Shown here: one piece after another, positions 1,061 to 5,416 of the stretch | Layout: every line of letters starts with the position of its first letter | How positions within the stretch are numbered: the first letter of the stretch is position 1 | Assembly: GCA_028717605.1 (NCBI GenBank) | Contig: JAQUNM010000001.1 | Span: 1 to 29,377, forward strand | Reading direction: 5' to 3' | DNA length: 29,377 bases | From: Minisyncoccota bacterium | GTDB lineage: Bacteria; Patescibacteriota; Minisyncoccia; Minisyncoccales; GWA2-38-27 | The notes under the pieces: model-generated | What the model was told of the DNA's origin: nothing | Databases searched by the model: none | The model's input: the letters and a program-made list of their open reading frames with translations, nothing else | Made by a program: the position numbers and the translations under genes

Positions 1061-1327
1061 ATGAAAAAAATATTGTGTCATGATTGTAAAAAAGTAATTG
1101 AGCTAAAAGAAGAAGAAATTAAGGACGGATTTAGGGTTGTATATAAAAAAGATGGAAAAGTAATTACTATTTTTAAGTGTAAGAATTGTTTTTCAAAAAA
1201 TAAAGCTTTAAATAATTTTCAAGATTGTGAGGTTTATTCTCGAGTAGTTGGTTATTTAAGGCCAGTTAAGCAATGGAACCAAGGAAAACAAAAAGAATTT
1301 AAGCAAAGAAAAGAATACAAAATATGA
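1061..1327 (+). CDS. Stand-alone class III ribonucleotide reductase (NrdD) C-terminal domain: Zn ribbon plus glycyl-radical loop
   Basis: CHDC...CKNC followed by YSRVVGYLRPVKQWNQGKQKEF, the NrdD RxxGY glycyl-radical signature. Only 88 aa, no catalytic barrel. Confidence 0.85.
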   Translation: MKKILCHDCKKVIELKEEEIKDGFRVVYKKDGKVITIFKCKNCFSKNKALNNFQDCEVYSRVVGYLRPVKQWNQGKQKEFKQRKEYKI

Positions 1328-2085: not shown

Positions 2086-2655
2086 ATGCAAACTTTAAAA
2101 AATTTATCAAAAGCTTTCATTGGAGAAAGCCAAGCTAGAAATCGTTATGATTTTTATGCCAAAATAGCTAAAAAAGAAGGTTATGAGCAAATAGCTGAAA
2201 TATTTTTAATTACAGCTGAGAATGAAAAAGCTCATGCTAAAAGATTATTTGAACATATTCAAAAAATAAAATCAGATAATCAAGAAATTTTAGTAGATGC
2301 AAGTGTTCCTAATATTTATGGTAACACAATAGACAATTTACAATCAGCTATTGAGGGAGAGAACCATGAATATACTCAAATGTATCCTGATTTTGCTAAA
2401 ACAGCAGAGCAAGAAGGTTATGAAGACGTTGCTATTCGTTTAAGATCTATTGCTAAGGCTGAAGAACACCACGAACAAAGATTTAAAAAAGTTTTAGAAC
2501 AATTAAAAAAAGAAAGTATATTTAAAAAAGATCAAGAAATTGAATGGGTTTGTAGAGAATGTGGTTATGTTCATAAAGGAACAGAACCTCCAGAAAAATG
2601 TCCTTCCTGCGATCATCCCAGAGCTTTTTATCAAGTAAAGTGCGAACAATATTAA
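2086..2655 (+). CDS. rbr: Rubrerythrin
   Basis: AFIGESQARNRY, ENEKAH, GENHE and EEHH diiron ligands; C-terminal rubredoxin CRECG...CPSC. Confidence 0.95.
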   Translation: MQTLKNLSKAFIGESQARNRYDFYAKIAKKEGYEQIAEIFLITAENEKAHAKRLFEHIQKIKSDNQEILVDASVPNIYGNTIDNLQSAIEGENHEYTQMYPDFAKTAEQEGYEDVAIRLRSIAKAEEHHEQRFKKVLEQLKKESIFKKDQEIEWVCRECGYVHKGTEPPEKCPSCDHPRAFYQVKCEQY

Positions 2656-2999
2656 GTGACCAAGAGTTTGAAAAATTAGTTAAACAAGGAATTGATTTAA
2701 TTCCAGAAAATATTTTAAAAAAACTGGAAAATATTGAAATTTGCATAGAAGATAAGTATCTTTTTAATAAATCAGGATCTTTAGTTTTAGGTCTTTACCA
2801 AGGAATACCCAAAATTAAAAGATGGGGTTATGGTCAGGTTTTACCAGATAAAATAACAATTTTTAAAAAATCAATAGAGAAAATTGCTAAAGACCAAAAA
2901 GATATTAAAAAAATTATAGCTAAAACAGTATATCATGAAATAGCTCATCATTTTGGGTATTCGGAAAAAGAGGTTAGAAAATTAGAGAAAAAAAGATAG
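2598..2999 (+). CDS. Minimal zincin-like metallopeptidase family protein (start uncertain)
   Basis: LGLYQG...PDKITIF and HEIAHHFG (HExxH). The recognisable part begins near DQEFEKLV at 2658. Confidence 0.85.
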   Translation: MSFLRSSQSFLSSKVRTILSDQEFEKLVKQGIDLIPENILKKLENIEICIEDKYLFNKSGSLVLGLYQGIPKIKRWGYGQVLPDKITIFKKSIEKIAKDQKDIKKIIAKTVYHEIAHHFGYSEKEVRKLEKKR

Positions 3000-4614: not shown

Positions 4615-5046
4615 TTATTTTTCTATTTTCCAATCTATGTCTTTTTCTTTTCCGGCAAATTCTAGCCATTCATCATCTTTTGTAATAACAAACCATTTTT
4701 TCTTTGCTTTTGACCAAATCATAGGATTTGATCTATAATATGGTTTTTTAACAATTTCTTTTGGTTTTAATTTATCTAGTTCCAGCCATTTTTTAAACAC
4801 GGTTTCAATTGAGTAGTCTAGATTTCTTGTTTGCGCCCATTGAGCCACTTTATCAATTGCTTTCTCAGCCTTATTTACAGAACCAGCTAATTCTAAAAGT
4901 TGTTTGGCTGGTCTAGTAAATCTAGAATAAATTATTTTTTGTTTTTTAATGTTTTGTTTAATTTGATCTAAATTTAAACCCTTGCTATAAAAATAATGAT
5001 TTACTATTTTTTGAATATCTGTTTCTTGCTTTTTTACTTTTTCCAT
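4615..5046 (-). CDS. Hypothetical protein (about 143 aa, Trp-rich C-terminus)
   Basis: The track start at 5067 lies in the promoter region. ATG at 5046 (MEKVKK) follows TGCTATTAT. Confidence 0.8.
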   Translation of the reverse strand: MEKVKKQETDIQKIVNHYFYSKGLNLDQIKQNIKKQKIIYSRFTRPAKQLLELAGSVNKAEKAIDKVAQWAQTRNLDYSIETVFKKWLELDKLKPKEIVKKPYYRSNPMIWSKAKKKWFVITKDDEWLEFAGKEKDIDWKIEK

Positions 5047-5080
5047 ATTAATATATAATAATAGCATATTTTAAAATTAT

Positions 5081-5416
5081 ATGGAACAAGAAAAAGAAAT
5101 CATAGAATTTATTGAAGGAAAAACAGAAAAAGAACCGATTAAAGAAACAACAGAAAAAACAAAACATCAAAAAGAGAAAGATCCAGAAACAGCCGTTACT
5201 TTTAAAGCAGAAGAAACAGAACAACAAAAAGAAGAAGTTTCAGAAATAGAAAATCTTAATTTTACTGGAAAAATAGAAAAACTTTTTAAATTAGCGGAAG
5301 TAAAAGGACTTTTGTATTCAATAGAAGTAGCTAGAAAGACAGGAGATGGTTACTTAATTGATGTTTTTAGGGACAGGTTAGCAGAAGATAATTATTATAA
5401 AAAATTTTTAAAATAA
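5081..5416 (+). CDS. Hypothetical protein, 111 aa, abutting the coupling ATPase
   Basis: Acidic low-complexity N-terminus, helical C-terminal block (KGLLYSIEVARKTGDGYLIDVFRDRL). Its TAA abuts the next ATG. Confidence 0.8.
   Translation: MEQEKEIIEFIEGKTEKEPIKETTEKTKHQKEKDPETAVTFKAEETEQQKEEVSEIENLNFTGKIEKLFKLAEVKGLLYSIEVARKTGDGYLIDVFRDRLAEDNYYKKFLK

Follow-up and report, generated by a model that had tools for sequence, protein, structure and literature searches.

Exposure to oxygen cleaves glycyl radical enzymes irreversibly, and the only repair of such enzymes known to us is that of pyruvate formate-lyase (PFL) by GrcA/YfiD. A small gene in the genome of a Minisyncoccota bacterium raises the question of whether another enzyme of this kind, the class III ribonucleotide reductase NrdD, is provided with a comparable replacement for its radical domain. 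The gene lies in a window of 29,377 nucleotides, the whole stretch of DNA analysed here (contig JAQUNM010000001.1), and its product, P0001, had been interpreted in an initial annotation as a repair factor for NrdD or as one half of a naturally split NrdD, with a decayed fragment of a full-length gene named as a further possibility. That annotation described an 88-aa gene with its own start that encodes only CxxC...CxxC and the motif RVVGYLRP, a description that the open reading frame at 1061–1327 on the forward strand bears out.

The small gene and the protein family it defines

The reading frame, the parts of its product and the features that surround it are the following:

1001–1029, + strand: putative sigma-70-like promoter TTGACA-17-TAAAAT, with 11/12 consensus matches, ~30 nt 5' of the P0001 start
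1061–1327, + strand: gene of the 88-aa stand-alone NrdD-type glycyl-radical module P0001, from ATG to TGA
1076–1189, + strand: zinc-ribbon part, C6xxC9 and C40xxC43 around a beta-hairpin (residues 23–40), as predicted from cysteine invariance, the NrdD alignment and the AF2 model
1226–1264, + strand: glycyl-radical loop CEVYSRVVGYLRP, residues 56–68, containing G64, as predicted from identity with the genome's own NrdD, invariant residues and the AF2 model
1265–1324, + strand: C-terminal helix and tail, with W72, K76, E79 and R83 invariant, from the homologue alignment and the AF2 model
1324–2085, + strand: short-chain dehydrogenase/reductase (SDR) gene (PF13561, E 5e-72)
2086–2655, + strand: rubrerythrin gene (PF02915, E 8e-35), its first base directly after the SDR stop

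P0001 resembles the C-terminal end of NrdD. Residues 28–86 align with positions 521–562 of the 562-position Pfam NRDD profile (PF13597) at E 2e-13, with a score of 50.3 bits (cut-off 26.2), and this match to the last 42 positions agrees with the earlier assignment to the zinc-binding and glycyl-radical part of NrdD. The NCBIfam NrdD models are matched in their last ~40 positions only and far under their equivalog cut-offs; for TIGR02487, the match covers profile positions 540–580 only and reaches 47.4 bits (cut-off 326), and P0001 lacks the barrel and the finger loop with its cysteine, which define a full-length NrdD, as well as the ATP-cone. In common with the C-termini of the T4 NrdD and the T. 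maritima NrdD (4COI/4U3E), P0001 possesses four zinc-site ligands, an RxxGY loop and a tail, arranged as a four-Cys zinc-type site, predicted to bind metal, followed by the glycine loop. Its cysteines form one CxxC pair at C6/C9 and another at C40/C43, with an additional C56, and the candidate radical glycine of RVVGYLRP is G64 (codon 1250–1252). The last 35 residues are 71% identical (25/35) to the NrdD of the same genome, whereas the spacing of the zinc knuckles in the alignment to that NrdD is ~30 residues in P0001 and ~10 in NrdD. No PFL-type Gly_radical domain (PF01228), by which the GrcA/YfiD family (IPR011140) is recognized, was found among the Pfam hits of P0001 at E<=1.

The AF2 model of P0001, built with the homologue alignment (mean pLDDT 78), contains a first hairpin (23–40) formed by strands 23–30 and 33–40, a second hairpin at residues 59–68 whose tip is formed by G64, and a helix spanning residues 69–82; the modelled shape is that of the usual glycyl-radical loop. 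A Foldseek search of the PDB with this model returned no match at E<=0.001, with NrdD 4U3E at rank 8 (E 6.8); a domain of this size is too small to be searched by fold. A profile search of PDB sequences gave a weak NrdD match only, to residues 612–645 of 4COI/4U3E (E 0.13).

A protein so short, with similarity to no more than the end of a large enzyme, could be a piece of nrdD that was duplicated and has no function, or a reading frame called in error. However, a word-indexed search found at least 586 P0001 homologues, and the 120 listed are 87–118 aa long and cover 92–100% of the query at 55–75% identity, so that a chance reading frame is ruled out by similarity over the whole length. The 120 aligned homologues share 19 invariant columns, situated in both halves of the protein, which include C6, C9, C40, C43, C56, E57, Y59, S60, G64, Y65, R67, P68, W72, K76, E79 and R83. 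Moreover, the N-terminal half, which NrdD does not have, is conserved and specific to the family, and the linker to the glycine loop, 7 residues longer than in NrdD, is conserved across the family together with the wide knuckle spacing. When 1.84 billion representatives were searched exhaustively with the family profile, 521 clusters were retrieved at E<=1e-10, the best 150 of which are mostly 80–160-aa proteins covering the entire profile, and over 100 clusters formed at 50% identity span the whole family profile; the ESM Atlas contains 68 look-alike clusters, all with automatic names only. The family is found in bacteria, in one Methanophagales archaeon and in one real phage. The reading as a dead fragment is, therefore, already refuted by this sequence conservation and we regard it as extremely improbable; the decayed fragment envisaged at the outset fails on the same grounds. 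A literature search found no description of the P0001 family, which is thus large, conserved and apparently undescribed.

The phage member was found at 4932–5270 of a 90.8-kb IMG/VR contig (L143), where it occurs alone between a PmgB-like head-morphogenesis gene and a tape-measure gene. About 30 more IMG/VR contigs carry the small gene with nrdD and nrdG absent within 5 kb, a situation that parallels Y06I of phage T4.

Candidate partners, putative promoter and neighbours of P0001

The genome assembly of the organism, for which the listed runs are DNA runs of landfill metagenomes and no RNA run appears, comprises 535 kb in 65 contigs and is 97.9% complete. Both nrdD and nrdG, which the initial annotation proposed to look for, were found adjacent to each other on contig C10, separate from the contig of P0001. 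The single full NrdD has 698 aa (NF006126, 1056 bits; cut-off 548), and directly 3' of its gene lies that of an NrdG2 that scores as its cognate activase (TIGR02495, 227.9 bits; cut-off 131). This NrdD retains the finger-loop CC motif, the zinc site, the glycine loop and the tail, its RxxGY, the second item raised by the annotation, being intact. The class I/II RNR domain (PF02867) and enzymes with the PFL-type Gly_radical domain (PF01228) were both sought in the same genome and not found. Since no RNR and no glycyl radical enzyme other than NrdD was detected, NrdD and NrdG are the sole plausible partners of P0001. Furthermore, since this NrdD keeps its RxxGY loop, in contrast with the loop-less NrdD of an obligate split enzyme, P0001 represents a second copy of the radical module and not the half of a split enzyme; next to an intact NrdD that is the only RNR found, it would be a spare. 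The spare-part reading stands in this genome as far as its gene content can tell.

A promoter of its own had been ascribed to the gene. The sigma-70-like site upstream is present, but this AT-rich region shows no enrichment of such sites (8 were found against an expected 12.8), for which reason the promoter at 1001–1029 is graded as plausible. The stop of P0001 overlaps the ATG of the SDR gene (ATGA at 1324–1327) and rubrerythrin begins directly after the SDR stop, a spacing from which the three genes probably share one operon. Rubrerythrin is a peroxide defence of anaerobes. The distance of the P0001 gene from nrdD and nrdG counts against the spare-part model, and no regulatory site common to the P0001 gene and nrdD/nrdG was found. 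NrdR co-regulation of the P0001 gene was rejected, with no NrdR gene in the genome and no NrdR box in the window, and control by PerR/Fur cannot be argued in this organism, as no Fur-family gene above cut-off was found in its genome.

Upstream of the P0001 gene, the window contains two small divergent reading frames of 70 and 81 aa (445–911, − strand) without a Pfam family, preceded by a perfect TTGACA-17-TATAAT promoter at 983–955 that mirrors the promoter of the P0001 gene. Inverted repeats near the latter were considered as a regulatory site and discarded, being merely the mirror of two divergent AT-rich promoters. Downstream, a Zincin_1 (PF06262) metallopeptidase-like reading frame is located at 2598–2999 (+ strand); its longest reading overlaps the last 58 nt of rubrerythrin, and its true start may lie further downstream.

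In relatives where the small gene is found apart from nrdD, genes for rubrerythrin, Fur-family regulators or hemerythrin often adjoin it. Four loci have a Fur-family gene upstream: in L018, L019 and L022 the regulator is placed 8–15 bp 5' of the small gene, and in L024 it overlaps the region that tblastn matched to the small gene. In L021, L022 and L056, the last of which is a Desulfobacterota genome, rubrerythrin follows ~30 bp 3' of the small gene, a direct placement unlike that in the window, where it comes after the SDR gene, and a hemerythrin-domain protein is encoded 4 bp 3' of the small gene in L023. The complete order of Fur-family gene, small gene and rubrerythrin occurs in L022. As a pattern of gene neighbourhood, this set fits a protein required following oxygen exposure.

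Linkage of the small protein to NrdD across relatives

One scan of GTDB species genomes yielded 41 loci with the full family, to which a genome of the phylum sample (G077) added the 42nd. The 41 loci belong to Patescibacteria, Desulfobacterota/Syntrophales, MAGs labelled Bdellovibrionales and one Methanophagales archaeon. An NrdD barrel was present in 43/43 family-bearing genomes examined; for comparison, an NrdD-type glycine loop of any sort was found in 111 of 401 sampled Patescibacteria (~28%). The loci can be arranged in three classes. In class A (12 loci), an intact nrdD is followed by the small gene and then by nrdG. In class B (6 loci: L030, L037, L041, L042, L057 and L058), this order is maintained, so that it is found in 18 loci in total, and the NrdD stops just past the zinc site, with its loop missing or visibly decayed. 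In class C (24 loci and the window), the small gene is located apart from nrdD, and all 24 genomes (24/24) have an NrdD match reaching the profile end.

Each class B genome contains one barrel and one glycine loop, the latter on the small protein, which is the only loop carrier there because the NrdD has lost its own; class I/II RNR is absent in two of the six. That NrdD can lose its own loop when the small protein is present implies, as read from the genomes, an ability of the latter to provide the radical in trans. Class B is the best indirect evidence for such in-trans action and the key evolutionary evidence. It also decides how the split-enzyme alternative of the initial annotation fares, since this alternative fails in the genome of the window, where the NrdD loop is intact, and applies to these six relatives. 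In addition, NrdD loops changed at otherwise-invariant positions occur in three Desulfobacterales genomes and two others in which the small protein keeps the consensus, and these divergent NrdDs resemble intermediate forms that connect class B with classes A/C.

In the three Desulfobacterales cases (L111, L112 and L119, the NrdD of G420, G418 and G419, respectively), the loop reads YSGVAGY and WISHKP replaces WNxGKQ, and these NrdDs may be in the course of passing the radical role on to the small protein. In some genomes, NrdD matches appear in pieces within very long frames, namely G401:C1:27450-32894 (1968 aa), frames of ~1030–1050 aa in G407 and G419, and the 5' part of L010, as expected for inteins inside nrdD.

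A glycine loop separated from its barrel is also encountered outside the family. Many Patescibacteria have a minimal split NrdD, undescribed as far as found, in which a 45–60-aa glycine-loop peptide is encoded between a truncated nrdD and nrdG. Since the loop is encoded alone in so many of them, a trans-supplied loop is, judging from the genomes, a recurrent natural solution. As in these forms, the glycine loop and tail of the P0001 family would come in trans to NrdD. However, the minimal peptides have no zinc ribbon, and in six loci they adjoin a truncated nrdD and are obligatory, whereas P0001 has its own ribbon, coexists with an intact NrdD and does not adjoin nrdD.

An example of the minimal form is provided by the one-contig 700-kb genome G174 (L010), where a peptide of ~45 aa is encoded at 1531–1668, the barrel frame ends past the zinc site and nrdG follows; the same form is found in L008, L012, L014, L015 and L016, with open frames of 47–123 aa. 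Among the 111 sampled loop-bearing Patescibacteria genomes, ~70 carry the glycine loop only on a short frame.

These arrangements could also be explained if P0001 were a routine radical subunit, preferred by NrdG and serving NrdD at all times, with the loop of NrdD itself redundant or being lost. The loss of the NrdD loop in six relatives, its alteration at otherwise-invariant positions in the five genomes with a consensus small protein, and the frequency of minimal split NrdD forms agree with this explanation. However, the NrdD loop keeps all invariant residues in the genome of the window and in the majority of the 37 genomes with an intact NrdD, from which it is still under selection, and the neighbours of the small gene suggest a stress-linked and not a constitutive use. 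A routine role is, thus, considered rather unlikely.

The similarity of the small protein to its cognate NrdD was examined in 32 genomes, at 30 positions of the loop and tail anchored on the motif, with 100,000 permutations. The small protein is 85.4% identical to the NrdD of its own genome and 73.6% to non-cognate NrdDs (n=32, p<=1e-5), and in 20 of the 32 genomes no other NrdD matches it better than the cognate one. The cognate excess persists in each of three subgroups, the cognate and non-cognate identities being 0.91 vs 0.79 in class A, 0.86 vs 0.74 in small genomes of class C and 0.79 vs 0.77 in large ones. Such special pairing would not be expected after one old duplication followed by independent evolution and, therefore, the two loops are kept in step. 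The cause may be either a common docking or activase constraint or gene conversion, which the permutation test cannot separate, and the cognate similarity could stem from gene conversion or recent duplication instead of a shared docking constraint.

A further explanation is that P0001 acts as a decoy or buffer of the activase, that is, as an alternative substrate of NrdG that tunes NrdD activation or stores radical equivalents and never docks. Its loop is the same as that of the NrdG substrate and its gene co-occurs with NrdG, as a decoy would require. Nevertheless, this leaves unexplained class B, where the small protein is the only loop, as well as the conserved C-terminal helix, which in NrdD packs in the barrel, and the co-variation with the cognate NrdD tail. 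We consider a decoy improbable, more so than a routine subunit.

A proposed replaceable radical domain for NrdD

Cleavage by O2 at the radical glycine is established chemistry of glycyl radical enzymes, NrdD included (PMC12288474). The validated spare parts are the two for PFL only (Andorfer et al. 2021; PMC8683613), and reviews know of no spare part outside PFL and leave the other glycyl radical enzymes open (PMC8683613; PMC13450708, June 2026). Those two, GrcA/YfiD of E. coli and Y06I of phage T4, are autonomous glycyl radical cofactors. Like them, P0001 is small and duplicates only the C-terminal glycyl-radical domain of an enzyme of the same genome; a cognate activase, an oxygen-stress context and phage-borne copies of the family (L143) complete the likeness. 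It differs from GrcA/YfiD in its derivation from NrdD (Pfam NRDD) and not from PFL, in an N-terminal half that is a predicted zinc ribbon and not disordered as in GrcA, and in its predicted target, a ribonucleotide reductase instead of PFL. That P0001 is an autonomous trans-acting glycyl-radical module for NrdD, working as GrcA/YfiD does for PFL, is the reading we favour and hold to be fairly probable. By analogy with these systems, we infer a repair function for P0001, which is strengthened by the cognate co-variation and the oxidative-stress neighbours.

According to this model, P0001 would be transcribed together with the SDR and rubrerythrin genes, as their spacing indicates, and would fold into a zinc ribbon (C6, C9, C40 and C43) followed by a hairpin tipped by G64 and a C-terminal helix, in line with AF2 and the homology to NrdD. 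NrdG, the only glycyl-radical activase of the genome, would then place a radical on G64, and the activated protein would dock its loop into the NrdD barrel near the finger-loop cysteine. In this way, P0001 would replace the radical domain of NrdD once cleavage by O2 at the radical glycine has broken the chain, and dNTP synthesis would resume without the making of a new 698-aa enzyme. In some relatives, the spare would have become the sole radical carrier. A point against the spare-part model is that an O2-cleaved NrdD would retain its own zinc ribbon alongside that of P0001. Speculatively, the family-specific hairpin may offer a surface for binding, which would be superfluous in a domain that is tethered. 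The full picture, in which a zinc-ribbon/glycine-loop cartridge charged by NrdG replaces the O2-destroyed domain of NrdD, is deployed with peroxide defences and constitutes the first non-PFL spare part, with intermediates from intact to loop-less NrdD and phages that carry the cartridge alone for host dNTP synthesis, is given about an even chance.

The genomic evidence supports a spare or detachable radical module for an enzyme different from PFL and essential, and the P0001 family is the best candidate so far for the spare part of a non-PFL enzyme. As NrdD is the only DNA-precursor route found in this 535-kb genome, a cheap replaceable radical domain would decide the survival of transient oxygen. 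The family offers natural constructs with intact, decaying and loop-less NrdD partners, in which trans-complementation is directly testable. If the model is true, these natural intermediates would show how the cofactor domain of an enzyme turns into a separate subunit. The family is also relevant to the ways in which ultra-small anaerobes, and the phages that infect them, withstand oxygen.
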